Shown: positions 1 through 11,370 of the stretch, piece after piece | How positions within the stretch are numbered: position 1 is the first letter of the stretch | How the letters are laid out: every line of letters starts with the position of its first letter | From: a virus | Lineage: Duplodnaviria; Heunggongvirae; Uroviricota; Caudoviricetes | Length of the DNA stretch: 11,370 nucleotides | Direction: 5' to 3' (one strand) | Virus record (IMG/VR): IMGVR_UViG_2585427766_000010 | Span: 1 to 11,370 of that record | Position numbers and translations under genes: made by a program | Notes under the pieces: generated by a model | Seen by the model: the letters and a program-made list of their open reading frames with translations, nothing else | Databases searched by the model: none | What the model was told of the DNA's origin: nothing

Positions 1-46
1 CCGCCCACGCAATATTGCCTTCAATTATATTGTGAGAACCGCATAA
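1..46 (+). CDS. Tail fiber protein, extreme C-terminal end only (5' part lies upstream of the window); cassette Sv_c
   Basis: Frame starting at base 2 reads RPRNIAFNYIVRTA then TAA at 44-46, matching the last 14 residues of the two minus-strand fiber cassettes (TRPRNIAFNYIVRAA, TRPRNVAFNYIVRAA). The stop overlaps the tfa ATG at 46 (TAATG). Confidence 0.6.
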   Translation, partial: RPRNIAFNYIVRTA

Positions 47-657
47 TGAATAACGCGATATTAAATGATGACCTTATTGCCGTACAGGCAGGAAACATCG
101 TCGTTTATAACTATGATGGTGAGACACGGGAATATATTTCCGAATCAACTGAATATCTTGCTGTGGGTGTCGGTATTCCGGCAAATTCCTGTTTAGATGC
201 CCCGGGCGCACATAAAGCGGGCTATGCTATCCGCCGTTCGGAGAATTTAAGTTCATGGGAGTATGCGCCAGACCATCGTGGTGAAACCGTCTATAGCACT
301 GACACGGGAAACACCGAAGAAATCACGGCGCTGGGTGACTACCCGAAAACTACAACCACTATCGCCCCGTTAACACCATACGATAAATGGGATGGTGAAA
401 AATGGGTGACAGATACTGAGGCACAACATCGTGCCGCAGTAGAAGCGGCAGAAACCAAGCGCCAGTCACTGGCTGATGCGGCAATGGCTTCCATAAGTCT
501 GATTCAGTTGAAGTTGCAGGCCGGGCGGAAGTTGACGCAGGCAGAAACCACCCGGCTTAATGCCGTGCTGGATTATATAGACGCGCTGAACGCAATGGAT
601 ATAAACATGGTACCAGATATCAACTTGCCGGAAATACCACTGGCAGCAGCCAGTTGA
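46..657 (+). CDS. Tail fiber assembly protein (Tfa; lambda Tfa / Mu U-like chaperone)
   Basis: 203-aa ORF with ATG at 46 and TGA at 655-657. Motifs typical of the Tfa family as I recall them: PDHRGETVY, KWDGEKWVTDTEAQ, and a C-terminal ...MVPDINLPEIP segment. It follows a fiber C-terminus on the same strand with start/stop overlap. Confidence 0.88.
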   Translation: MNNAILNDDLIAVQAGNIVVYNYDGETREYISESTEYLAVGVGIPANSCLDAPGAHKAGYAIRRSENLSSWEYAPDHRGETVYSTDTGNTEEITALGDYPKTTTTIAPLTPYDKWDGEKWVTDTEAQHRAAVEAAETKRQSLADAAMASISLIQLKLQAGRKLTQAETTRLNAVLDYIDALNAMDINMVPDINLPEIPLAAAS

Positions 658-663
658 ATATAA

Positions 664-1140
664 CTAAGCCGCCCTCACGATATAGTTAAATGCAATATTG
701 CGGGGGCGGGTTTCACTACCACCTGTGTTACCAATACTTCCTCGTGAATGAAGCGTTGGTGATGGAATCAAACTCCCTCCTGTATTTGTGGCATCAAGCC
801 CCCTGCCTTGTGTATATGTTTTTTTGAAAATCGTAGCCAACTCCCATTCATCTTTTGTGTCATATCCATCGTTAGCTACAACAATATGGCGGTGTTTTTC
901 CAACATCCCGTTTTGAATGCTCAATAAAGCGCGTGCCGCATCAATTCCTCGCCCATCATCCCAGCCACGGATAAATTCACCGCGTAAATCCGGTAATTTA
1001 TTGGTGGGGTAGGCCTTTGCCAGATTGGGGTACATTTCAGAAGAAAATGCTGCACCGTTACATTTCAGCCAGCCCGTTGGTGGTGTGGCTGAGGGCCATG
1101 GAACAGGCACACCAACGGGCAGTGCAGAGCCTTCCCCCAA
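664..1140 (-). CDS. Alternative tail-fiber C-terminal cassette (Sv_b): promoterless, start-less copy of the fiber distal domain
   Basis: The open frame runs from a stop at 1162-1164 down to TAG at 664-666. The track start at 1140 is a TTG with no Shine-Dalgarno upstream. The first ~65 aa (GLGEGSALPVGVPVPWPSATPPTGWLKCNGAAFSSEM...LPDLRGEFIRGWDDGRG) are near-identical to residues ~219-285 of the upstream fiber; the middle diverges; the last 15 aa are conserved again. Confidence 0.6.
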   Translation of the reverse strand: MGEGSALPVGVPVPWPSATPPTGWLKCNGAAFSSEMYPNLAKAYPTNKLPDLRGEFIRGWDDGRGIDAARALLSIQNGMLEKHRHIVVANDGYDTKDEWELATIFKKTYTQGRGLDATNTGGSLIPSPTLHSRGSIGNTGGSETRPRNIAFNYIVRAA

Positions 1141-1145
1141 ACCAA
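926..1145 (-). repeat. Direct repeat copy A (~220 bp), 5' homology block of cassette Sv_b
   Basis: Aligned by eye against 1440-1659 at a constant 514-bp offset; roughly 88-90% identical, differences mostly transitions. Homology stops abruptly at both ends. Confidence 0.8.
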
Positions 1146-1157
1146 CGTTTTCATGCG
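1132..1157. other. Candidate serine-invertase crossover site (site 2), 12-2-12 layout TTCCCCCAAACC-AA-CGTTTTCATGCG
   Basis: Sits exactly at the upstream edge of the cassette homology and spans the fiber stop codon. The left half-site matches the TTCnnnnAAACC pattern of hix/gix/cix sites as I remember them; the right half-site is degenerate. Confidence 0.4.
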
Positions 1158-2305
1158 GCTCTTACGATGTAATTAAATGCAACGTTGCGAGGGCGAGTTT
1201 CTGTACCTACATTTCCACTAATTTCACCAAACCGTCTTACATTACGAGAGCTAATGGCTCGTAGTGAGGAAGGCACCTTTAAACCGGGTTCGTCTGTTTT
1301 AACTATTCCCCCGTCCCCGTATGTAGCCAGTATTCCAGGGTTTACTCCTTCCCGTGTGCTTCCCGTGGCAAGTCCATCCCCGGTCCATAATTCCATATAG
1401 TGTGCATGATCCAAAATTGTGTGTGGCTGCCAATTAAGCAAAGCGCGGCCAGCATCCACCCCGCGCCCATCATCCCAGCCGCGAATAAATTCTCCCCGTA
1501 AATCCGGTAATTTATTGGCGGGGTAGGCCTTTGCCAGATTGGGGGACATTTCAGAAGAAAATGCTGCACCGTTACATTTCAGCCACCCCGTTGGCGGCGT
1601 GGCTGAAGGCCATGGAACGGGCACACCAACGGGCAGCGCCGAGCCTTCCCCTAAACCAAGGTAATTGAGGACTTCTTTTATACTGCCCATAGCGATAATA
1701 GCGCGACCAATAGCTGTAAGGGTTGTCAGTGCTGCGCGGTCTGCTCCGGTAAAATAAGGCAACCGATCTGCTGCAGTGGCAAGTCCTGCCAGAGCAGTGA
1801 GCGTGGCATCTGCCGGTTGTTTTCCGTTTGCCAGATCGTATGCAGCCTTGACCGCTTTCGGTGTGGCGGCCAGTATTTCAGACGTGCTGTTGATGTCACT
1901 GCTCAATTGTACGGTGCCTTTTGCCGTCAGCGAGGCAGCAGGCACTCCCGTTATCTGACTCCACGGGTGAGTATGGCTGACGGGGGCCTTGCCGGCAGCC
2001 AGGTCATATGCAGCCTTGACGGCCTTTGGTGTGGCGGCCAGCGTTTCAGAGGTGCTGTTGGTGGCACTGCTCAGTTGGGTGAACCCCTTAGCTGTCAGTG
2101 TCGCGTCCGGGTGGTTACGGGAACGTACGTGTTCAGCCAGTGACTGTGCGGCTTCCTCCGTTTTTTTCTTCAGCCATTTCGTCCTGTTTGCCAGTTGCCG
2201 GGGGGCTCGATTTGATATCCCGTCTGCACCACCCAGAACCGGATCTGATGTCTCCAGTTGATAGATATTTTCTTCCCACTTTTCTGTTTCATTCAGGTTT
2301 CCCAT
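1151..2305 (-). CDS. Tail fiber protein (Sc constant part plus Sv_a distal cassette)
   Basis: Long ORF with stop TGA at 1151-1153. Preferred start is the ATG at 2305-2303, which has GGGAG 9 nt upstream; the track start (TTG at 2311) is too close to that GGGAG to be likely. Contains two copies of the phage fiber repeat (LTAKG..QLSS...STSE.LAATPKAVKAAYDLA.GK) and a collar-like domain (WLKCNGAAF...LPDLRGEFIRGWDDGRG). Confidence 0.88.
   Translation of the reverse strand: MGNLNETEKWEENIYQLETSDPVLGGADGISNRAPRQLANRTKWLKKKTEEAAQSLAEHVRSRNHPDATLTAKGFTQLSSATNSTSETLAATPKAVKAAYDLAAGKAPVSHTHPWSQITGVPAASLTAKGTVQLSSDINSTSEILAATPKAVKAAYDLANGKQPADATLTALAGLATAADRLPYFTGADRAALTTLTAIGRAIIAMGSIKEVLNYLGLGEGSALPVGVPVPWPSATPPTGWLKCNGAAFSSEMSPNLAKAYPANKLPDLRGEFIRGWDDGRGVDAGRALLNWQPHTILDHAHYMELWTGDGLATGSTREGVNPGILATYGDGGIVKTDEPGLKVPSSLRAISSRNVRRFGEISGNVGTETRPRNVAFNYIVRAA
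1440..1659 (-). repeat. Direct repeat copy B (~220 bp), 5' homology block of cassette Sv_a inside the fiber gene
   Basis: Partner of 926-1145; same orientation, 514 bp apart. Confidence 0.8.
1646..1671. other. Candidate serine-invertase crossover site (site 1), TTCCCCTAAACC-AA-GGTAATTGAGGA, at the Sc/Sv_a junction
   Basis: Same left half-site and AA core as site 2; the right half (GGTAATTGAGGA) partly matches the GGTTTnnGAnAA pattern. Lies in the same codon phase as site 2 relative to the cassette frames (core in codon positions 2-3 of ...NYL / ...ENV before GLGEGS). Confidence 0.45.
1820..2098 (-). repeat. Tandem in-frame repeat inside the fiber shaft (two units, period 168 bp / 56 aa)
   Basis: tgcagccttgac recurs at 1841 and 2009; the encoded units LTAKGFTQLSSATNSTSETLAATPKAVKAAYDLAAGK and LTAKGTVQLSSDINSTSEILAATPKAVKAAYDLANGK match the common phage tail fiber repeat. 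Confidence 0.75.
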
Positions 2306-2307
2306 AA

Positions 2308-2886
2308 TCAACTGCTCCCGTGGTTATAACTGCCATCATGGATGGCGGTATTGTTATAGCGAATGGCCACAGACTGATACTCCAGGCTGGCCAGATGGCA
2401 GCGGGCCGGTGCAAATGCAGCCAGCGTCTGACGCAGCATCGCGGCCTGATCGTTAGTAATGGGCTGTTTCAGAATAACGCGATAAACTGCCCAGGCGGCT
2501 GCATCTCCATGAACAAACAGTCCGTTATAGCTGCGATTGCCGTCGTAACTGAGACGACCTGTGCCTTCAATCAGATCCACTTCACCAAAGCCAAAACGGC
2601 GGATAACTTCCCGGATTGACCACGGCGTCCCTTTATACCGGTGCAGTTCGATGGCTGCTTTTATAAGCATGCGGCGAACATCGTCCGATTCCGCCAGCTC
2701 CCAGCCATCGCCAGACAGTGAGAACTGCTCGCCCAGCCATGGCAGCGCGGAACTGTCGACGATATCGACGAGAAAGACCATCAGTACGCTCAGGTCGATG
2801 TTATCCAGCCGTCCTGCCAGTCTTCCCAGCGTCCTGAGACTGATATCACCCTCAAGCGGTGGCGGGAGTTGTAATGGCTCAGTCAT
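2308..2886 (-). CDS. Baseplate/tail protein, P2 gpI-like (Mu gp48-like)
   Basis: 192-aa ORF, ATG at 2886-2884 with GGAG upstream. Its stop overlaps the fiber start region and its start overlaps the gpJ 3' end by 8 bp. Size and position (between the J-like gene and the fiber) fit gpI. Confidence 0.8.
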   Translation of the reverse strand: MTEPLQLPPPLEGDISLRTLGRLAGRLDNIDLSVLMVFLVDIVDSSALPWLGEQFSLSGDGWELAESDDVRRMLIKAAIELHRYKGTPWSIREVIRRFGFGEVDLIEGTGRLSYDGNRSYNGLFVHGDAAAWAVYRVILKQPITNDQAAMLRQTLAAFAPARCHLASLEYQSVAIRYNNTAIHDGSYNHGSS

Positions 2887-3982
2887 CAGACACTCCAGTC
2901 ATGTTAAGAGTGATTGCCGTACAGTTTGCCCATTCGTTTTCTGCCACCACCCGCAGTGCCGGTGTCACCAGTTCAACCTGGTACACCCCGGAAACGGACA
3001 ATGCACTGATAATCTGGCTGGGGACAATATCGCGCCCCAGCGTGGCGGCACGTGATGCCACCCAGTTCTGTATGGCGCTGTTAGCGGCATCTTTTACAGA
3101 CCTGGCATCCTGATCACGATAGATCGTAATCTTGGCTTCAATGGTGTAATCCACCTTCACTGGTGTTTTAGCCCGCACTGTATCAGTGAGTGGCCTGACT
3201 TTCTCATCAGAGCAGAAACTCTCTACCAGCGTGAGAACACCGCCGTCCGGCAGACCGGTACTGAGCAGCGGATACAGATCTACGGTCCCGGGAACCGGGG
3301 AAAGCACAGCAACATCGACAATGTTGGGATGGGCCTGCATGGCATGAAAGCGGTATGCGCCACGGCTTCCGGCATTGGTGAATGACTCCGGGGCCAGCCT
3401 GATACGCTCCCGGAGCCTGTCATCGTCTTCCTGTTCTGAACCGCCGGAACTGGCCGTCAGATTGCTCACCAGCAGGTCGACGTTATCAATCTCATCGAGT
3501 AACTGACTGACCTGCGCAGGTTGCCAGCCGTTACCAGCGGTACCGGGTTCGGTACAGGTGGACGTGACATTGACCAGCAGCAATCCGGCCTTCAGTACCA
3601 CATCTGTATCGGTGGCAAAAATAACGCTGTCGGAAGCGCTGACGCGGGTGCCTGCCGGGATCAGCACATCAATGGCCAGTGCCTCATCTACGGAGAACTG
3701 GAGCGTGGTAGTGGCAGGCTGCGCGGCAAGACGGTATACACCGACCAGTTCACCGAGGTAATCAATCATCGGCTCACGGGCAAAGGCGACCAGATTCTGC
3801 TTTGCTGCCTCCTGTACCGCAACCCTGACCAGCATTTCGCGATAGGCCCACAGATCAATCAGCAGACGTTCTGCCTGTGCCGGGTACAGCGTTTTGCCGG
3901 TATCCGCTTCATACTTCGCAATCATTTCTGCCGTGATTTTGTCGGCATCGCGTTCAATAAAATCGGGTTCTGTCAGCGCCAT
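2879..3982 (-). CDS. Baseplate J-like protein (P2 gpJ / Mu gp47 family)
   Basis: 367-aa ORF, ATG at 3982-3980 with AGGAG upstream. Position between W-like and I-like genes and size are typical of baseplate wedge J proteins. Confidence 0.85.
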   Translation of the reverse strand: MALTEPDFIERDADKITAEMIAKYEADTGKTLYPAQAERLLIDLWAYREMLVRVAVQEAAKQNLVAFAREPMIDYLGELVGVYRLAAQPATTTLQFSVDEALAIDVLIPAGTRVSASDSVIFATDTDVVLKAGLLLVNVTSTCTEPGTAGNGWQPAQVSQLLDEIDNVDLLVSNLTASSGGSEQEDDDRLRERIRLAPESFTNAGSRGAYRFHAMQAHPNIVDVAVLSPVPGTVDLYPLLSTGLPDGGVLTLVESFCSDEKVRPLTDTVRAKTPVKVDYTIEAKITIYRDQDARSVKDAANSAIQNWVASRAATLGRDIVPSQIISALSVSGVYQVELVTPALRVVAENEWANCTAITLNMTGVSDD

Positions 3983-4320
3983 AGCAGCTCCTGAGTCCGG
4001 GTCTGTCCGTCTGAGCCTTTCCAGCTCACCCGGAGCGTAAGATGTTCGCCGTCGACGGCGGGTTTAACTGACATAAGCTGGCAGCGGGGCTCCCAGCGCC
4101 GGATGGCATCGACGGATTCGCGCACCACATGCGGAATGGCCCGGTCTACAGGCCAGTCGATATAAAGATGCAGATTGCTGCCGAACTCCGGGCGATGCGG
4201 GTCGCTGCCGCGGGGAGTCCGCAGGATAATTTGAATCGCCTGCCGGATATCATCCAGCCCCCGGACAATTTCGCCGGGAGCCTGCAGGGTCGGTTGCCAG
4301 AATACTGAGGTTGTTTTCAT
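3973..4320 (-). CDS. Baseplate wedge protein, GPW/gp25-like (P2 gpW / Mu gp46 family)
   Basis: 115-aa ORF, ATG at 4320-4318. Size and the ...IRQAIQIILRTPRGSDPHRPEFGSNLH... segment resemble the GPW/gp25 family; overlaps the J-like gene by 10 bp. Confidence 0.8.
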   Translation of the reverse strand: MKTTSVFWQPTLQAPGEIVRGLDDIRQAIQIILRTPRGSDPHRPEFGSNLHLYIDWPVDRAIPHVVRESVDAIRRWEPRCQLMSVKPAVDGEHLTLRVSWKGSDGQTRTQELLWR

Positions 4321-4338
4321 GGGGGCAGTATTGCCCCC
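4321..4338 (-). other. Perfect 7-bp-stem hairpin (GGGGGCA-GTAT-TGCCCCC) directly abutting the gpW start codon
   Basis: Inverted repeat read directly in the 54-bp gpV-gpW gap. There is no downstream U-tract on the transcribed strand, so it is not a canonical terminator. Confidence 0.35.
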
Positions 4339-4374
4339 GTGCGGGAACGCTGATATTAAAGGCGTTTAAAAAGC

Positions 4375-4971
4375 TCAGTGGGAGTGGTGGCTGGAGTTTT
4401 CGCCATCAGACAACATACTGCCCGTGGCATGGGCATTCCCTTTAATCTCGATATTGCCATGGATGGTCGCGGTAACCCCTTCACCACCAGAACCCGCCAT
4501 GCCTCCTTCGTAAATCAGCTTACCCCTGACACGCAGATCTCCGGTAAGTTCGGTTTCCGGTGCGTCAATCGTGGCTTTCTGTGTTTTCAATACCACATCA
4601 GCACCACACTCAATGACAATATGCTCAATGCCGCCCCGGATGGTCAGAGTGTGCGTCTTCCGGTTGTAGCTGTACTCTGCACCATCAGCAAACCGGGTTC
4701 CCCGGATATTTTTGTCACTGAACGGTGGTTTATCGACGTCTGAATACACCGCGCCCAGAATAACACCATCCTCGCCGTTGGCATCGAGCAGCACCTCAAC
4801 CTGCTCCCCCACGTCAGGGAGCCAGTAATCTTTGTTATCCTGGGTATTGCGCTGCAGCACGTTAAGCCAGTTTGTGCGCAGGTTATCGCATTCAGGCAGA
4901 CGAACGCGGGCCTGAACCCTGTCGGCATCAACGGCACTGACCGTACCGACCTGACGAGTGACACCAGTCAT
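4375..4971 (-). CDS. Baseplate assembly/spike protein V (P2 gpV / Mu gp45 family)
   Basis: 198-aa ORF, ATG at 4971-4969 with AAGGAG upstream and ATGA overlap with the gpD-like stop. The ...WLPDVGEQVEVLLDANGEDGVILGAVYSD... N-domain and a C-terminal spike region resemble gpV. Confidence 0.82.
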   Translation of the reverse strand: MTGVTRQVGTVSAVDADRVQARVRLPECDNLRTNWLNVLQRNTQDNKDYWLPDVGEQVEVLLDANGEDGVILGAVYSDVDKPPFSDKNIRGTRFADGAEYSYNRKTHTLTIRGGIEHIVIECGADVVLKTQKATIDAPETELTGDLRVRGKLIYEGGMAGSGGEGVTATIHGNIEIKGNAHATGSMLSDGENSSHHSH

Positions 4972-6122
4972 TTTTTCTTCTCCTTAATCACCGTCGATGT
5001 ACTGCCATCCGGGTGATAAACCGTGAGTTTCTGAGTTTTTTGTTTTTTCCCTCTTGTGACTGGCCCCCGTGCCACTTCCAGCTCTGTGGTGTAGCCGCTG
5101 TTACGGTCAAACGCATGGCGGGCAGTGGTTATGAGCCATGGCCCGGATAACTGCCCAAAACCCACCAGTTCAATTTTGTTGCCTGCTGTCAGTTGAGGTG
5201 TTCCCGTCAGCGTCAGGGAGCCGTTCTGCTGGTATTCGTTATGTCTGGCCAGTGCTGAATCCGCTTTAATCCGGGCACTGTCCGGGTCGCTGACGCGGCT
5301 GTTAACTTTAAGTGAGTCAGCGCTGGTAACCTTACCACCTTTGAGCTTTTTGTCGCTTTCACGGGTACCACCATCAGCTTCGTAGACGATCAGTTTTTTA
5401 CTGCTGCTTTTCTGGTGTTTTACCTTTGCAGATTTATAGACCCGGTTGATGGTGTCACGCAGGGAAAAGCGGGCCACATCCTGCGGTTTTAACTGCCTGA
5501 CCGGCTCCTGACTGCGCAGTGTGGCCAGATGAGAAAAAATCAGCTGGTCACTGACCACTTTCACTGCATAACCATACTCGCTGGCCAGCCGGCGCAGAAA
5601 ACCCACGTCGGTTTCAGCATACTGGGTCACCCGGTCGATTCTGATGGACTCAATGCTGCCCACCAGTTTCAGTCGGTGCTTTCTGGCAATCCGCCCCGCA
5701 ACAGCTGCCAGCGTGGTGTTCTCAAAACCACGACTGGTTTTAGTCCGCAGGGCACTGTTAACCGAGGTGGCCACCCCACGGATAGAAACAACGGAAGCGG
5801 GCGAACTCACTTCGATCTCGTCTATAGAGAACGTACCGCAGGACAGCAGCTTCTCGCCCTGATAGCCCATTTTCAGCGTCAGCGTGTCACCCTTGCCCGG
5901 ATACCATTTATCCAGCCAGCGGCCATCGGTGTCGTCCAGCTCCACCTCAATGGTATCGGACTCATTTTTGATGTTATCGCTCCAGGTCACACGGGTGACA
6001 TAAGGCGCGATATCAGAGGTGATGTTTTTCTGCAGATACCACAAAGTGAACACCGGTGTCAGCACATCGCTGACGCCGGTTAACGCTGATGTGACTTGCG
6101 CAGTGCTGTTTATCTCAGCCAT
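4968..6122 (-). CDS. Late control gene D-like tail protein (baseplate hub; P2 gpD / Mu gp44 family)
   Basis: 384-aa ORF, ATG at 6122-6120. Size and position immediately upstream of gpV are characteristic; Lys-rich C-terminus. Confidence 0.82.
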   Translation of the reverse strand: MAEINSTAQVTSALTGVSDVLTPVFTLWYLQKNITSDIAPYVTRVTWSDNIKNESDTIEVELDDTDGRWLDKWYPGKGDTLTLKMGYQGEKLLSCGTFSIDEIEVSSPASVVSIRGVATSVNSALRTKTSRGFENTTLAAVAGRIARKHRLKLVGSIESIRIDRVTQYAETDVGFLRRLASEYGYAVKVVSDQLIFSHLATLRSQEPVRQLKPQDVARFSLRDTINRVYKSAKVKHQKSSSKKLIVYEADGGTRESDKKLKGGKVTSADSLKVNSRVSDPDSARIKADSALARHNEYQQNGSLTLTGTPQLTAGNKIELVGFGQLSGPWLITTARHAFDRNSGYTTELEVARGPVTRGKKQKTQKLTVYHPDGSTSTVIKEKKK

Positions 6123-6322
6123 GGGGCAATATCCTCTTCTGTACGGGCTTCTTCAGCCTCAATCACCGGGATCAGTAACAACAGCCCGGAGGGCAGCACC
6201 GGCGTGATGGCCACGTGCGGATTGGCGGCAATAATCCGGGGATAGCCCAGCGGGTCACCGTAGTACTGCCATGCCAGCGAATCCCAGCGCTCTCCGTCAC
6301 GGGTAACATGTTCAAGAAACAT
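6110..6322 (-). CDS. Tail protein X-like (P2 gpX family, LysM-like)
   Basis: About 70 aa. Preferred start is the ATG at 6322-6320 (the track's 6325 start is GTG). The ...WDSLAWQYYGDPLGYPRIIAANP...LPSG...IPVIE pattern resembles gpX; 1-bp overlap with the upstream gene's stop (TGATG). Confidence 0.7.
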   Translation of the reverse strand: MFLEHVTRDGERWDSLAWQYYGDPLGYPRIIAANPHVAITPVLPSGLLLLIPVIEAEEARTEEDIAPWLR

Positions 6323-7206
6323 CACACACTCCTCGTCAGTATTCTGGCGGCCATTGCACTTAATCCCGGAGACATGCGGTTGAATGCTGTGCCGGCGGCG
6401 TTAAGCTGCCCGGAAACGGTATCCAGAGCATCTGCAATATTTCTTTTGTCCACACCACTCAGCGCAGACTGTGCCTGCTGTACATACGTGGCTGCTTCGC
6501 TGGCTGTTCTGGCCAGACTGATGGCATCGGGCATGGATTCAGAGAGTGCGTTAAACGCCGGAACACTTTTCCCCAGAGCCCCGGAGATATTACCCAGTCC
6601 GCTCATCAGCCCCGGCACACGGGTCAGTGCGACAACGGGGTTATCCTTCATTTTCTGTGTCACCCGAACGGCGCTGATAGTGGTCTGGAGTACAGACTGC
6701 GCCTGTTTCGCATAGTTGACGCCGTTGCGGATGAACTGCGCCACCCCTGAAGGTGAAGGTATGGCACCGGAGACCGCCCCGACACCCGGGAGCTTCGTGC
6801 GTATTGCCGGTGGTTGCAGAGGATTTTTCGGGTCACCGGTGTATTCCCGGAGAGACACGGTGGCACTGACAGCCAGCACGTTGCCGGTACTGTCAGTCTG
6901 CTCGCTGGTTGCAGTCACATCGGTAATCACGAACCAGCCGCGATAGTCACCGTTGCCGAAGACCAGCGCCAGTGCCTGATGGGCTTTCATGGCTGTTCGC
7001 AGTCTCGCCAGCTCCACATCGGGTACACAATAATGCTGATGGAAAACCAGAGTTATCTGGATTTCGTCCAGCCTGTCGCCGACGAACTGCAGGCCAGGCT
7101 TACCCCCGATGCGGGCATGCTCCGCATAATCGACGCCGAACGTGGCCTCGAAGCCGTCCCAGTAGGTAATCAGCTCAAACTCAATATCACCCAGTACGGC
7201 AAACAT
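6322..7206 (-). CDS. Tail protein with P2 gpU-like N-terminal domain and an Ala/Ser-rich C-terminal extension
   Basis: 294-aa ORF, ATG at 7206-7204, abutting the tape measure stop. The N-terminal ~130 aa (MFAVLGDIEFELITYWDG...GLQFVGDRLDEIQITLVFHQ) resemble gpU; the C-terminal ~160 aa are low-complexity. Confidence 0.65.
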   Translation of the reverse strand: MFAVLGDIEFELITYWDGFEATFGVDYAEHARIGGKPGLQFVGDRLDEIQITLVFHQHYCVPDVELARLRTAMKAHQALALVFGNGDYRGWFVITDVTATSEQTDSTGNVLAVSATVSLREYTGDPKNPLQPPAIRTKLPGVGAVSGAIPSPSGVAQFIRNGVNYAKQAQSVLQTTISAVRVTQKMKDNPVVALTRVPGLMSGLGNISGALGKSVPAFNALSESMPDAISLARTASEAATYVQQAQSALSGVDKRNIADALDTVSGQLNAAGTAFNRMSPGLSAMAARILTRSV

Positions 7207-9106
7207 CAGCGGTACTCCTTACGTTGTTTCTGAGCCAGCAGACGCTCCAGCATTTTTTCCAGCTCATGCAGACTCATATTCAGGGCACCAGTCAGTCCTG
7301 CAGGCGCTGTGGTTTCCCTGCCATTGAGGAAAAACTGAGGATTAAAGCTGACCTGGATACCACCAGACGTTCCACCGCCGGTTGCAGCTGCACCACGGCC
7401 TGAATATCCGGCAGCCAGGATTTCAGGCGAGGGGATACGGGGAACATCCGGTGTCATCTCATTTGCCAGACGTTGCCCTGGTAAAATCGATGCCCGGGTG
7501 GAGAGCGGAATAGCGGGCATGGAAGACAAACTATTGATTACGGCTCCGATCGCATTTTTAGCAGACGACATAAACCCATTGATATCGGGCAACGGCATAC
7601 TGAAGCGAACACCTGAAGTGTTATCCCGTATTTCTGGCCCCTGGATGCTCACGGGCATTCTGGGGAGCAGTTCACTGGCCATTCGCTGCCCGGCCAGAGC
7701 TGCAAGCGGAGTGGTCCGCTGCAGGCCAATGGCGGCCCCCTGCGCGATATTGTCACCAAAGCCCATAAACACGCGGCTCGGCGAATGAATGCCCAGCTTT
7801 TCGCTGAACCAGCCACTGATGCTGTCACCCATTCCGGTTACACTGGATTTGAGCGACTCCCATTTGTTTTTGATACCGTTAATCAGACCATCGACAAGAT
7901 GGCCACCGAAGTCGGTAAACTTTGCCGGCAGATCAACACCAAGATATTTCAGCGCAGCTGCAAAGGCTTTATAGAGCAGGCCTGCCGGCGACCAGTTAAT
8001 CAGTAACTTACCAATTCCCACAATGCCGCCGTTAAAGGCTTCCTGAATGTCTGCCCAGCGCTGTTTAAACCAGCCACTGACTGCCCCCCAGTTGCGGTAG
8101 ATAAGGTAAGCTGCTGCCGCGACAGCGGTGATAACGAGACCGATGGGATTCATCATCAGCGCACGTCCAATCCAGAGAACAGCACGTCCGGCGAGCATAA
8201 TTCCGCGAACCAGCCCCTCGGAGAGCACGCCACTCAGTGTTCTGGCTCCTCTGGCGACGGCGCTAAATCCGGTCACCAGCCAGCGGAGCTTACCGCCTTG
8301 CCCCAGTGCGAGCGACAGACGAAGCCAGTTGGCCCGAAGTAAAACAGCATTTTTCCAGACACTTACAAAGGGGGAAATAAGGAGATTCAGCCCCAGTTTG
8401 AGACCAACAGTCGCTATCTTAATCGCAAGGAGCGCACTGATGAGCTTAAAAGCCCCACTGACAAATTGCGGGTGAGTCGCTACCCAGTGTTTTGCCCCCT
8501 GAATGAGTGGAAGCAGTTCCTGAGTCAAAGAAATAAAAGATGGAGCTAATTGATCGCCCAGCGTAATTGCCAGATCGCGACTGCTGACCATAAGTGTTTT
8601 AGTGGCTTCAAGGGGAGATTTCAGCCGCTGATCATAAGCACTGGCAAGCAAATCGTTATCCGCAGCCCTGAGAGCACCGGCACGGATCTCTCGATATCTG
8701 TCCATGTTGGCCAGCATCGGGCGGATAAATGCCATGACCTGCATATCCGCGAACATATCGCCCAGACCAAAGTTTTTCGCCAGAGCCTGAAGTGCCTCAT
8801 CTCTTGCCGTATCATTCTTTATTTTCATGGCTGATTTGAAGCCGGCCAGCGCTTCGGGGCTTTTGGCATTGAGGTAACGTTCTATAACACTCAACATCCC
8901 TTCAATCGGAGAGATCCCCGCAGCTTTATAACTCGCAATAGATCCCTGCAAATCAATACCCAGATCAGCAAACTGTTTCTGAGTATCGCGGGCAAAAATT
9001 TTGGTAAGAAAGTTTTTAAAATTATTGGCTGCTTCGTCGGTGGAACCTGCACCGATTTTTGCTATCTGGAGACTGGCCCCGATTTCAGCAACAGCCTCTT
9101 TTCCAC
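7206..9106 (-). CDS. Tail tape measure protein, 5'-interrupted by the IS66-family insertion (probable pseudogene/fragment)
   Basis: Stop TGA at 7208-7206. The frame is open upstream well past the track start (TTG at 8951) to about 9106, where the sequence becomes the IS end (in-frame stop at 9155-9153 inside the IS). Contains the GIHSPSRVF-type motif and long hydrophobic helices typical of tape measure proteins. Confidence 0.75.
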
Positions 9107-9192
9107 TGTAAGCGTAAAGCCAATGCCGTCTGTAACACCTGCTCCTTGCAGACTAAATTAGAGCTCCTTCTAAATTAGACGGAGTTCTATTG

Positions 9193-9627
9193 ATGGATAA
9201 ACCTACAGACTGGCGCTCCGGAACCCGCCGGATATTTTCTAATGAATTTAAACTTCATATGGTTGAACTGGCTTCGAAACCAAATGCCAATGTTGCACAA
9301 CTGGCCCGGGAACATGGCGTTGATAACAACCTGATTTTTAAATGGCTACGCCTCTGGCAAAGAGAAGGACGTATTTCTCGTAGAATGCCTCCAACTATTG
9401 TAGGCCCTACAGTATCACAATCTTTTCCGGCCTCTCCGACTCTGGTTCCAGTGGAACTTATCGACACCCCGCGCTGTGCTACAGATGCTCCTGCTCCGGA
9501 GGCATTATCAGTTGCTTGTGCAGCTTCCTGCCATGTGGAATTCCATTACGGTAAAATGATGCTGGAAAATCCTTCACCAGAGCTGCTCACGGTGTTGATC
9601 CGTGAGCTGACCGGGAGGGGACGATGA
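9193..9627 (+). CDS. tnpA: IS66-family accessory protein TnpA (orf1)
   Basis: ATG at 9193 with GGAG 8 nt upstream (the track start at 9190 is TTG); about 144 aa. Stop overlaps the tnpB start (ATGA at 9624-9627). Confidence 0.8.
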   Translation: MDKPTDWRSGTRRIFSNEFKLHMVELASKPNANVAQLAREHGVDNNLIFKWLRLWQREGRISRRMPPTIVGPTVSQSFPASPTLVPVELIDTPRCATDAPAPEALSVACAASCHVEFHYGKMMLENPSPELLTVLIRELTGRGR

Positions 9628-9974
9628 TTTCACTCCCATCAGGTACCCGTATCTGGCTCGTTGCCGGCGTTACTGATATGCGTAAATCCTTCAACGGTCT
9701 GGGGGAGCAGATACAGCATGTGCTGGATGATAACCCCTTCTCCGGTCACCTGTTTATCTTCCGTGGCCGACGGGGAGACACGATTAAAATCCTGTGGGCT
9801 GATGCTGATGGTCTGTGCCTGTTCACCAAACGCCTTGAGGAAGGTCAGTTTATCTGGCCTGCGGTGCGTGACGGTAAGATATCCATTACCCGCTCGCAAC
9901 TGGCAATGCTCCTCGATAAGCTGGACTGGCGTCAGCCAAAAACATCCCGCCTTAACGCACTGACAATGTTGTAA
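9624..9974 (+). CDS. tnpB: IS66-family accessory protein TnpB (orf2)
   Basis: 116 aa; MISLPSGTRIWLVAGVTDMRKSFNGL...IKILWADADGLCLF... is the characteristic IS66 Orf2 sequence as I recall it. Confidence 0.85.
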   Translation: MISLPSGTRIWLVAGVTDMRKSFNGLGEQIQHVLDDNPFSGHLFIFRGRRGDTIKILWADADGLCLFTKRLEEGQFIWPAVRDGKISITRSQLAMLLDKLDWRQPKTSRLNALTML

Positions 9975-10004
9975 AAAACTCCTGACCGCATTATAAAAAC
10001 GGCC

Positions 10005-11370
10005 ATGAGTCAGAAATACCTCATTCGCATCGCTGAGCTGGAAAGGCTGCTCTCTGAGCAGGCTGAAGCCCTCCGTCAGAAAGACCAGCAACTGAGTCTG
10101 GTTGAAGAGACGGAGGCCTTCCTGCGCTCTGCACTGGCACGTGCCGAAGAAAAGATCGAAGAAGATGAACGGGAAATAGAGCATCTGCGGGCTCAGATAG
10201 AAAAACTGCGCCGGATGCTGTTCGGAACCCGTTCTGAAAAACTGCGTCGTGAGGTTGAACAGGCTGAAGCCCTGCTGAAACAACGCGAGCAGGAAAGCGA
10301 TCGTTACAGTGGGCGTGAGGATGACCCGCTGGTTCCCCGCCAGTTGCGACAGTCGCGCCATCGTCGTCCGTTACCGGCACATCTCCCCCGTGAAATATAC
10401 CGCCTGGAGCCTGAAGAAAGCTGTTGCCCGGAGTGTGGCGGTGAGCTGGATTATCTGGGGGAAGTCAGCGCAGAACAACTGGAACTGGTGAGCAGCGCCC
10501 TGAAAGTGATCCGCACAGAACGGGTAAAAAAAGCCTGTACAAAATGTGACTGCATCGTTGAAGCACCGGCACCATCCCGTCCGATAGAGCGTGGTATCGC
10601 GGGCCCGGGGTTACTTGCCCGCGTGTTAACGGGAAAATACTGCGAACACCTGCCACTGTATCGTCAGAGTGAAATCTTTGCCCGCCAGGGTGTCGAACTG
10701 AGCCGTGCCTTACTCTCCAACTGGGTTGATGCGTGCTGCCAGTTAATGACGCCGCTGAATGATGCCCTGTACAGTTATGTGATGAACACCCGCAAGGTTC
10801 ACACTGATGACACACCAGTAAAAGTACTGGCACCGGGCAGGAAGAAGGCGAAAACAGGATATATCTGGACGTATGTCCGGGATGACCGAAATGCCGGTTC
10901 GCCAGAACCTCCGGCGGTCTGGTTCGCCTACTCACCGGACCATCAGGGTAAACATCCGGAGCAACACCTTCGTCCCTTCCGGGGTATCCTGCAGGCAGAT
11001 GCGTTCGCAGGTTACGATCGGCTGTTCAGTGCCGAACGTGAAGGCGGCGCGTTGACGGAAGCAGGATGCTGGGCTCATGCGCGGCGCAAAATCCACGATG
11101 TATATATCAGTACCAAAAGCGCGACGGCGGAAGAAGCACTGAAACTAATCGGCGAACTGTACGCCATTGAGCACGAAATACGCGGGTTGCCGGTGTCTGA
11201 ACGCCTGGCGGTCAGGCAAATGCAGAGTAAACCGCTACTGACTTCCCTGTATAAGCTGATGCAGGAGAAAGAACACACGTTATCGAAAAAATGCCGTCTG
11301 AGAGATGCGTTCCGGTATATCAGGAAGCACTGGGTTGCGTTGTGCAACTTCTGTGATGACGGTCTGGCGG
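10005..11370 (+). CDS. tnpC: IS66-family transposase TnpC (orf3), 3'-partial (runs off the window)
   Basis: ATG at 10005, open to the end of the window (over 455 codons), so absent from the stop-delimited ORF track. Has an N-terminal coiled-coil/leucine-zipper-like region and a CPECGG...CTKCDC zinc-ribbon motif, as in IS66 transposases. Confidence 0.8.
   Translation, partial: MSQKYLIRIAELERLLSEQAEALRQKDQQLSLVEETEAFLRSALARAEEKIEEDEREIEHLRAQIEKLRRMLFGTRSEKLRREVEQAEALLKQREQESDRYSGREDDPLVPRQLRQSRHRRPLPAHLPREIYRLEPEESCCPECGGELDYLGEVSAEQLELVSSALKVIRTERVKKACTKCDCIVEAPAPSRPIERGIAGPGLLARVLTGKYCEHLPLYRQSEIFARQGVELSRALLSNWVDACCQLMTPLNDALYSYVMNTRKVHTDDTPVKVLAPGRKKAKTGYIWTYVRDDRNAGSPEPPAVWFAYSPDHQGKHPEQHLRPFRGILQADAFAGYDRLFSAEREGGALTEAGCWAHARRKIHDVYISTKSATAEEALKLIGELYAIEHEIRGLPVSERLAVRQMQSKPLLTSLYKLMQEKEHTLSKKCRLRDAFRYIRKHWVALCNFCDDGLA

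Follow-up and report, generated by a model that had tools for sequence, protein, structure and literature searches.

A three-cassette tail-fibre switch of the Gin/Cin/Pin family in a damaged Mu-like prophage of Escherichia coli

Closest described fibre switches

Invertase-driven switching of tail fibres is a textbook form of bet-hedging for host range. The Min system of p15B, the Cin system of P1 and the Pin system of e14, which were reportedly reviewed by Sandmeier in 1994, use Gin-family invertases that act on 26-bp sites inside the fibre genes. P1 and e14 carry two such sites; p15B carries six, and nested inversions there allow one 5′ end to be joined to any of several 3′ ends. In prophage Phi2 of E. 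coli EC958 the inversion was seen directly in PacBio reads and the sites were listed against the Sandmeier consensus (Forde et al., 2014; PMC4134206). A fibre switch with three repeats and four variants, termed a ‘shufflon’, was validated by PCR in a P2-like prophage of EPEC E2348/69 (Goldberg et al., 2014; PMC4272514).

The DNA analysed here (the window) is a complete draft contig of 11,370 bp, and the element that it represents is a damaged Mu-like transposable prophage of E. coli. Positions 1–1671 are most of an invertible segment of ∼2.08 kb, a tail-fibre switch of the Gin/Cin/Pin family; the 5′ part of one cassette, a third crossover site and the invertase gene lie past the contig end. 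The system has already been described, since read-level evidence of inversion has been published for the same prophage family, and the published Phi2 site coordinates correspond to the EC958 copy of the locus examined here (L006). Biology thus gains little beyond what is known. The locus explains why draft assemblies break at this point, why automatic annotation leaves ‘phage tail protein’ fragments strewn about and why otherwise clonal isolates, for example ST131 strains, differ by 2 kb; the survey given below contributes a population picture of the isomers.

Locus layout and crossover sites

Positions 1–1671 of the window contain an expressed tip (SvA), a silent tip (SvB), a single tail-fibre assembly gene (tfa) and the final 14 codons of a third tip (SvC); the coordinates given for the features in the preliminary description were all correct. 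The constant N-terminal part of the fibre gene, Sc (1660–2305, minus strand), encodes two Phage_fiber_2 repeats (PF03406, E = 6.4e-38) and is similar to residues 107–149 of Mu S. It is fused in frame to SvA (1151–1659, minus strand), the cassette now joined to it, which gives a single intact ORF of 384 amino acids starting from the ATG at 2305. SvA encodes a Collar domain at the distal (receptor-binding) end of the fibre and resembles the collar regions of T4 gp37 and gp12 and the short tail fibre of PDB entry 9CUY. SvB (664–1145, minus strand, 159 codons; Pfam Collar, E = 8e-15) has the orientation of the expressed gene and is silent, as had been claimed: both an in-frame ATG and a Shine–Dalgarno sequence are absent and the sole possible start is a TTG at 1140. 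In the gene map of strain cS51a SvB is fused to Sc and expressed as an annotated intact CDS.

The 3′ end of SvC, a silent cassette on the plus strand, is visible at 2–46 as 14 codons (RPRNIAFNYIVRTA) followed by a stop codon; the full-length cassette is present in strains DLI.5a and cS51a and encodes 153 amino acids. The SvC stop codon overlaps the start (ATAATG) of tfa (46–657, plus strand; Pfam Caudo_TAP, E = 8.9e-31), the sole assembly (chaperone) gene of the segment, which is antisense to the fibre gene in the window state and is annotated as a tail fiber assembly protein in neighbouring genomes. A sequence search of the PDB with Tfa gave no match, and in NCBIfam neither the fibre nor SvB nor Tfa could be placed in a family and the invertase of the sister genomes had sub-threshold matches only.

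The collar-coding 5′ stretches of SvA (1440–1662, encoding the Pfam Collar domain) and SvB (926–1148) form a direct repeat of 223 nt. The preliminary description had put the length of this stretch at about 220 bp, which stands, and had called the copies near-identical, which does not, as they are 90% identical. It had also given all three cassettes the same final 15 residues; their C-terminal tails (TETRPRNVAFNYIVRAA, SETRPRNIAFNYIVRAA and RPRNIAFNYIVRTA, the last being the 14 residues of SvC that are visible) are alike but not identical, and the pattern common to the three is RPRN(I/V)AFNYIVRAA. Tandem Repeats Finder reported nothing in positions 1–2400, and the shaft repeat was detected only as a 78% direct repeat.

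Two 26-bp crossover sites of the Gin/Cin/Pin type mark the cassette 5′ ends, so placed that the constant/variable boundary falls inside the fibre ORF. The internal site (1132–1157, plus strand, TTCCCCCAAACC AA CGTTTTCATGCG) has the 5′ end of SvB as its left half, and its right half overlaps the SvA stop codon. The site at the Sc/Sv junction (1646–1671, plus strand, TTCCCCTAAACC AA GGTAATTGAGGA) is recombinant, with an SvA-type left half and an Sc-type right half, and differs by one base from the published 5′ site of EC958 Phi2, TCCTCAATTACCTTGGTTTAGGAGAA. The cassette boundaries at 1659 and 1145 coincide exactly with the AA core dinucleotides of the two sites. When the 11,370 nt were scanned with the 17-nt site consensus, allowing up to two mismatches, exactly two places were found, both of them exact matches, against 0.03 expected by chance. 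A third site with the same AA core was found at the 5′ end of SvC in sister genomes, where the preliminary description had suggested looking for one. Each of the three consists of two imperfectly symmetric 12-bp half-sites around the shared 2-bp core. All fusions across them are in frame, namely Sc–SvA in the window, Sc–SvC in DLI.5a and Sc–SvB in cS51a, the last also when the B fusion was built in silico. The reciprocal site of the window strain is predicted to be TTCCCCCAAACC AA CGTTTATCTCTC, with the invertase gene next to it.

Elsewhere in the window an IS66-family element truncates the tape-measure gene, so that fibre switching may have no phage-level consequence in this strain; other strains have the prophage in complete form, including its head, lysis and transposition genes.

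Inversion, isomers and the invertase

The organization of positions 1–1671 is very probably explained by an invertase-driven three-cassette tail-fibre switch. The fibre gene has a fixed 5′ part (Sc) and ends in SvA, SvB or SvC as its exchangeable 3′ cassette; in front of every cassette lies a 26-bp crossover site whose core is AA. A small serine invertase, with its gene immediately beyond the segment and presumably aided by Fis and an enhancer, would bring the Sc site together with any partner site in inverted orientation and flip the intervening DNA. Three sites yield four isomers in this way. Isomer C carries Sc–C and a co-oriented tfa followed by inverted B and A; isomer B carries Sc–B followed by inverted tfa, C and A; isomer A2 carries Sc–A and co-oriented C and tfa followed by inverted B; and isomer A carries Sc–A and co-oriented B followed by inverted tfa and C. 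The window corresponds to isomer A, in which the whole segment is flipped relative to isomer C.

Strains DLI.5a and E30 are 100% identical to the window over positions 1663–9108 (7.4 kb), and positions 1–1662 are inverted in both, at 99.9% identity in DLI.5a and 98.5% in E30. The clonal ST131 isolates JJ1886 and JJ1887/EC958 are separated by the same flip. In both comparisons (the window against DLI.5a/E30 and JJ1886 against JJ1887/EC958) the half-sites are swapped reciprocally at the AA core. The window junction is an exact reciprocal recombinant: the last SvA-type SNP stands 8 nt from the core end and Sc sequence begins with the first base after the core, which confines the crossover to the 7 nt AAACCAA.

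RecA-dependent homologous recombination between the inverted collar-coding repeats of about 220 nt could in principle have produced the inversion, as the repeats, at 223 nt and 90% identity, are long enough. Such recombination would spread crossovers over the repeat, whereas in every comparison the exchange falls within the 7 nt that surround the AA core, on the extreme edge of the homology, and the 223-nt stretch keeps all its cassette-specific SNPs, the closest of them 8 nt from the core end. With all exchange points at the core, this route was rejected as extremely improbable. The Sc–SvA junction might instead be a short-read assembly chimera across repeated cassette sequence, given that the contig is a short draft with repeated DNA at both ends (the IS66-family element and the cassette 3′ end). 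The parental sites share just seven exact bases at the join (AAACCAA), however, far fewer than any assembler k-mer, and the same type of junction is present in closed long-read genomes such as that of JJ1886. The shortness of the common sequence led to the rejection of a chimera, the chance of which is close to negligible.

The distribution of the isomers was surveyed with junction queries against 5426 complete genomes. The C junction was found in 327 genomes, A and A2 junctions together in 157 and the B junction in 202. The B and A2 junctions were first assembled in silico; both then turned up in genomes with identity and coverage of 100%, and gene maps confirmed them. All four isomers predicted from the three sites are therefore present in complete E. 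coli genomes. The existence of genomes in the B and A2 states shows that the internal site is used, and with it the extra same-orientation cassette that had been likened to multi-site systems; since the isomers are common, this site, which is unlisted in the EC958 paper, is in regular use. The core-to-core lengths of the invertible segments are 2075 and 1561 nt. The exact pair of Sc and SvA alleles of the window occurred in none of the 5426 complete genomes, and the junction of its IS66-family element with the tape-measure gene was in no complete E. coli genome. Among indexed contigs the window was the only one to encode the identical fibre protein.

A serine recombinase of 190 amino acids (WP_000904922.1) with an intact ORF is encoded 54 nt from the segment in DLI.5a, in the same prophage, and also adjoins it in E30, cS51a, EC958 and others. 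Its domains are Resolvase and HTH_7, its match to the Mu Gin structures 4M6F and 3UJ3 has E = 2e-93, and in an alignment with Mu Gin 138 of 193 positions are shared. Over its initial 240 nt the gene aligns with Mu gin, and one strict match to the Fis consensus, at nt 71–85, is common to the two genes. The preliminary description had proposed an invertase-type fibre switch and had named a serine recombinase of about 190 residues beside the segment and heterogeneous junctions as what should be sought. The proposal is borne out by the sister genomes, in which the Gin-like invertase, the third site and plentiful junction heterogeneity between genomes, with reciprocal exchange at the AA core, are all seen.

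The switch may still be active in the window strain. It could alternatively be a frozen relic, in which invertase-mediated inversion occurred in the past and the switch now sits in a dead prophage, no longer flipping and without function, the invertase having been lost or inactivated. The truncated tape-measure gene points in this direction, as does a contig that stops before the expected position of the invertase. On the other side, neither the segment nor either visible site is damaged, they match DLI.5a at 99.9% identity, the invertase ORF of that strain is intact, and the fibre ORF and all baseplate ORFs of the window are intact as well. Invertases moreover act in trans on other prophages, and Phi4 flips although its own invertase is truncated (Forde et al., 2014; PMC4134206). 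A relic is accordingly considered unlikely, though not strongly so.

As for the consequence of switching, the analogy with Mu, P1 and carotovoricin suggests that the cassettes would change host range. By a different analogy, that of PinQ and StfE2 of e14, the flipping fibre C-termini might have been domesticated to serve the bacterium, for example as a protein that blocks the adsorption of other phages: when PinQ inverts the P segment of e14, StfE2 arises and prevents T2 from adsorbing (Kirigo et al., 2025), and the fibre locus of the window is intact even though its prophage is defective. Because a complete prophage exists elsewhere and ordinary phage host-range variation suffices as an explanation, a domesticated function is regarded as very unlikely.

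The single assembly gene and comparison with known systems

One tfa serves three cassettes, where the layout of Mu (U and U′) and P1 provides an assembly gene for each; an own assembly gene per cassette is a trait of that layout and not of the recombination mechanism. In isomers A (the state of the window) and B, two of the four, tfa runs antisense to the fibre gene, and SvB lacks a co-oriented tfa in every isomer. An independent promoter for SvC–tfa was considered and rejected: promoter-like matches in the window did not exceed chance, and no promoter-like site was present upstream of SvC–tfa in a sister locus in the A state. The single tfa might make the locus more than a swap between three tips, in one of three ways: the switch may also toggle the supply of the chaperone and give fibre-less or ‘off’ virions; some collar-type tips may fold without Tfa, or all three may share one Tfa, supplied in trans from other prophages, through their common tail; or defective copies like that of the window may persist because they serve the host, for instance by hindering the adsorption of other phages. 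Even taken together, these readings are judged rather improbable. The single and often antisense tfa is the only part of the locus that could repay experiment.

EC958 Phi2 belongs to the same prophage family, with a constant region 97.8% identical to that of the window. The invertase is the same protein (WP_000904922.1) and its gene occupies the same place, there are three cassettes with one tfa, and the 26-bp sites agree apart from the one base in the Sc-junction site. It differs in that the variable parts of its cassettes are other alleles, with 50–60% protein identity to those of the window, and in that the paper gives two outer sites and one inversion of 2067 bp and not the internal site. 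The window copy is distinguished from it by the truncation by the IS66-family element and by one shaft repeat fewer. The EPEC shufflon is likewise built on three inverted repeats with partial homology, and its four variants coexist and give the fibre three alternative C-termini (PMC4272514); its inversions of ∼2.2 and ∼1.8 kb follow, by the published description, the same logic as the segments of 2075 and 1561 nt at the window-type locus, but it resides in a P2-like and not a Mu-like prophage.

The locus shares with the Mu G segment a 26-bp site that divides the fibre gene into Sc and Sv, and an invertase gene immediately outside the segment that is read in the direction leading away from it. 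On the Sv side the half-site reads GGTTTAGGGGAA at the window-type locus and GGTTTACAGGAA in Mu gix, and the core is AA/TT here and GA/TC in Mu. The 3-kb segment of Mu contains two sites and two cassettes, the latter with an assembly gene apiece (U, U′), whereas three sites, three cassettes and one tfa occupy 2.08 kb here, and the cassettes of the window are short collar-domain tips, unlike Mu Sv. The isomer set of p15B Min is far larger than that of the window-type locus, and the likeness to p15B, P1 and e14 is one of layout as described for them. In the R64/IncI shufflon, too, multiple inversions give an adhesin, PilV, its C-terminus from one or another of several cassettes, but that system depends on the tyrosine recombinase Rci and 19-bp sfx sites; the recombinase that neighbours the present locus is a serine resolvase/invertase, and membership of the R64-type shufflons was rejected on this ground. 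With three sites and the four isomers found, the locus belongs to the class of multiple-inversion systems, which have more than two sites and more than two isomers.

Tail module and fibre cassettes

A contractile-tail module is encoded on the minus strand of the window and comprises the tape measure (7206–9108), a GpU-like gene (6322–7206), X (6110–6325), D (4968–6122), V (4375–4971), W (3973–4320), J (2879–3982), I (2308–2886) and the 384-residue tail fibre (1151–2305). The constant N-terminal part of the fibre gene, Sc, contains two Phage_fiber_2 repeats (Pfam) and is joined to SvA, one of three interchangeable 3' cassettes encoding the fibre tip. SvB (664–1145) lies beyond the fibre gene in the same minus orientation and has neither an in-frame ATG nor a Shine–Dalgarno sequence; the last 14 codons of the third cassette, SvC, are found on the plus strand (2–46) ahead of the tail-fibre assembly gene tfa (46–657, plus; Pfam Caudo_TAP). 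This layout, proposed in a preliminary description, was confirmed with two small corrections: the 5' ends of SvB and SvA do share 223 nt (926–1148 versus 1440–1662; about 220 bp had been noted), but at 90% identity and not as near-identical sequence, and the C-termini, described as the same 15 residues in all three cassettes, are alike but not identical. Both visible cassettes contain a Pfam Collar domain, and the short collar-type tips show similarity to T4 gp37 and gp12 in their collar regions and to a short tail fibre (PDB 9CUY). A search for the exact fibre protein matched a single indexed contig, JOQO01000076.1 of draft assembly GCA_000714135.1, which is the window itself. A 45-nt inverted repeat around tfa is formed by the 3' ends of SvC (1–45) and SvB (665–709), which are 80% complementary. 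The first base of the window falls exactly in the conserved cassette tail, suggesting that the assembly was broken here at a repeat common to another prophage in the same genome.

Crossover sites and the invertase

The cassette boundaries of the preliminary description coincide with the AA dinucleotides at the centre of two sites of 26 bp, one at the Sc/SvA junction (1646–1671; TTCCCCTAAACC AA GGTAATTGAGGA) and one internal (1132–1157; TTCCCCCAAACC AA CGTTTTCATGCG). A scan of the window with the 17-nt site consensus, allowing up to two mismatches, gave exactly two matches, both exact (chance expectation 0.03). On the strand of the fibre gene, the site at 1646–1671 reads TCCTCAATTACCTTGGTTTAGGGGAA, one base off the published site of prophage Phi2 of strain EC958; the Phi2 sites were there set against the Sandmeier consensus of Mu, P1, e14, p15B and S. 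boydii (PMC4134206).

Window 1663–9108 is 100% identical in E. coli DLI.5a and E30, which carry the same prophage, and 1–1662 is inverted in both (99.9 and 98.5% identity, respectively), the order being invertase, SvA and SvB on one strand, then tfa and SvC–Sc on the other. The invertase (WP_000904922.1, 190 aa), which in DLI.5a starts at a distance of 54 nt from the segment, contains Resolvase and HTH_7 domains, aligns with the Mu Gin structures 4M6F and 3UJ3 (E = 2e-93) and is identical to Mu Gin at 138 of 193 aligned positions; a gin/cin/pin-like serine recombinase of about 190 aa, as anticipated beside the segment, is therefore present in these sister genomes. In a scan for a Fis-dependent enhancer, the initial 240 nt of this invertase gene could be aligned with Mu gin, and a single strict match to the Fis consensus (nt 71–85) occurs in both genes. 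The NCBI annotation pipeline cuts the intact Sc–Sv fibre ORF of such loci into short CDS and 'incomplete' pseudo-fragments (L003 6103–7214; L004, L006–L009) and labels the silent cassettes, which lack promoters, as 'phage tail protein' (L003, L004, L006–L009); zero internal stops were found in the fibre ORF of DLI.5a.

The SvA-type left half TTCCCCTAAACC continues in DLI.5a through AA into the invertase-side half CGTTTATCTCTC, and the SvC-type left half has the Sc-side half GGTAATTGAGGA as its partner; the third crossover-like site that had been sought is thus located at the Sc/SvC junction of this genome. In the window, unlike in DLI.5a, the Sc-side half is joined to the SvA-type left half. 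SvA-specific SNPs extend to 8 nt from the core end and Sc sequence starts from the first base after the core, so that the crossover is confined to AAACCAA. Homologous recombination in the 223-nt repeat was ruled out since its crossovers would scatter along the repeat, and an assembler mis-join at Sc/SvA was ruled out because the join has just 7 shared bases. These junctions identify the window as the precise product of site-specific recombination. The same reciprocal swap sets JJ1886 apart from JJ1887 and EC958 among clonal ST131 isolates.

Isomers of the segment in E. coli genomes

Three sites permit four isomers, named by the cassette joined to Sc and connected in the cycle C–B–A2–A–C. In state C, Sc–C is followed by tfa and then by B and A inverted; in state B, Sc–B is followed by tfa, C and A inverted; in state A2, Sc–A, C and tfa are followed by B inverted; in state A, Sc–A and B are followed by tfa and C inverted. 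The window is state A, the fully inverted isomer. tfa is co-oriented with the fibre gene in C and A2 and antisense to it in A and B, SvB has a co-oriented tfa in none of the four states and a promoter scan found no sigma-70-like site above chance upstream of SvC–tfa. The RPRN(I/V)AFNYIVRAA tail common to all cassettes could provide a shared handle for one Tfa.

Junction sequences with ST131 alleles were compared with 5426 complete E. coli genomes and counted at a coverage of at least 80%; the B junction query was assembled in silico from the silent middle cassette of EC958 and Sc. The counts are approximate, as every complete genome records a single consensus state and several such prophages are present in some of them: the C junction was found in 327 genomes, the Sc–A junction (A and A2 together) in 157 and the B junction in 202, with many matches at 100% identity and 100% coverage. 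An in silico A2 junction also gave matches at 100% identity and 100% coverage (∼70–90 genomes, from the rank spread of the matches). Gene maps and site scans assigned AR_0055 to state B and strains 463 and 1435 to state A2; another state B genome, that of cS51a, shares its SvB, SvC and tfa alleles with the window (100% identity over 1–1145). Though approximate, the counts show the internal site to be in regular use. The alternative junctions expected in the preliminary description thus occur as all four isomers, and the extra same-orientation cassette behaves as in a multi-site system.

In the two-cassette form of the switch carried by strain CE10 (L009 2869–4509), the invertase-proximal site has an invertase-side right half and a left flank identical to that of the middle (B) cassette in ST131, as would remain after a deletion between the two directly repeated sites. 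In strain 4/0 (L011, NZ_CP023849.1, 97–4002) the B cassette lies away from the invertase: an ordinary crossover site joins it to another fibre gene, located after a gene I of P2 type. The arrangement has the appearance of either a misassembly or a large chromosomal inversion, produced by site-specific exchange between fibre sites belonging to two different prophages.

Host element and comparison with known systems

The EC958 copy of the prophage encodes a DDE transposase, a MuB-like ATPase, Gam and Mor, and sister copies are found at many different chromosomal loci; on these transposition genes and varied positions, the host element is a transposable Mu-like phage. Its early and late regions are transcribed divergently. 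One copy disrupts ompF, a sodium symporter gene and an EAL-domain gene are each truncated by others, and further copies lie next to torZ, next to aroA or within a lambdoid prophage (strain 1435, L014 227–1776; L002, L003, L004, L006, L009). A P2-like prophage of KOr024 (L001 6571–8671) contains an SvC–tfa–SvB–SvA block 97.9% identical to window 1–1662, behind a different Sc and adjoining its own recombinase (WP_001165544.1), which indicates that the whole invertible module is exchanged between phage types. The shaft repeat in Sc (1821–1930 and 1989–2098; Phage_fiber_2 motif) has a spacing of 168 nt, and the stretch between the crossover site and gene I measures 637 nt in both the window and DLI.5a, against 805 nt in ST131 and 1141 nt in cS51a; these lengths differ by multiples of 168 nt, so that shaft length varies with repeat copy number.

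An IS66-family element (9107–11370), encoding TnpA (9190–9627), TnpB (9624–9974) and a partial DDE transposase (10005–11370), is inserted in the tape-measure gene, of which 7206–9108 is left of 2691 nt; the window ends inside the element. The insertion makes the prophage of this strain defective, and the switch may be a relic; alternatively, by analogy with PinQ and e14, for which a host-level role has been reported (Kirigo et al., 2025), it may have such a role here.

The evidence supports a fibre switch of the Gin family that works by multiple inversion, seen here as its fully inverted isomer, in keeping with the invertase-type interpretation first put forward. Such a switch is already known, both as a kind and at this locus family. 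The sites of the EC958 locus (L006) lie at the exact coordinates published as Phi2_5prime and Phi2_3prime; the 2067-bp invertible segment of Phi2 was found via an alternative-orientation contig from PacBio reads, with only the two outer sites listed (Forde et al., 2014; PMC4134206). A three-repeat layout was described in a P2-like prophage of EPEC E2348/69, with four variants, three alternative C-termini and inversions of ∼2.2 and ∼1.8 kb, all PCR-validated (Goldberg et al., 2014; PMC4272514), compared with core-to-core lengths of 2075 and 1561 nt here. Mu, in contrast, has two cassettes rather than three, one tfa per cassette rather than one in all and a GA rather than an AA core dinucleotide, and the short collar-type tips found here are unlike those of Mu.
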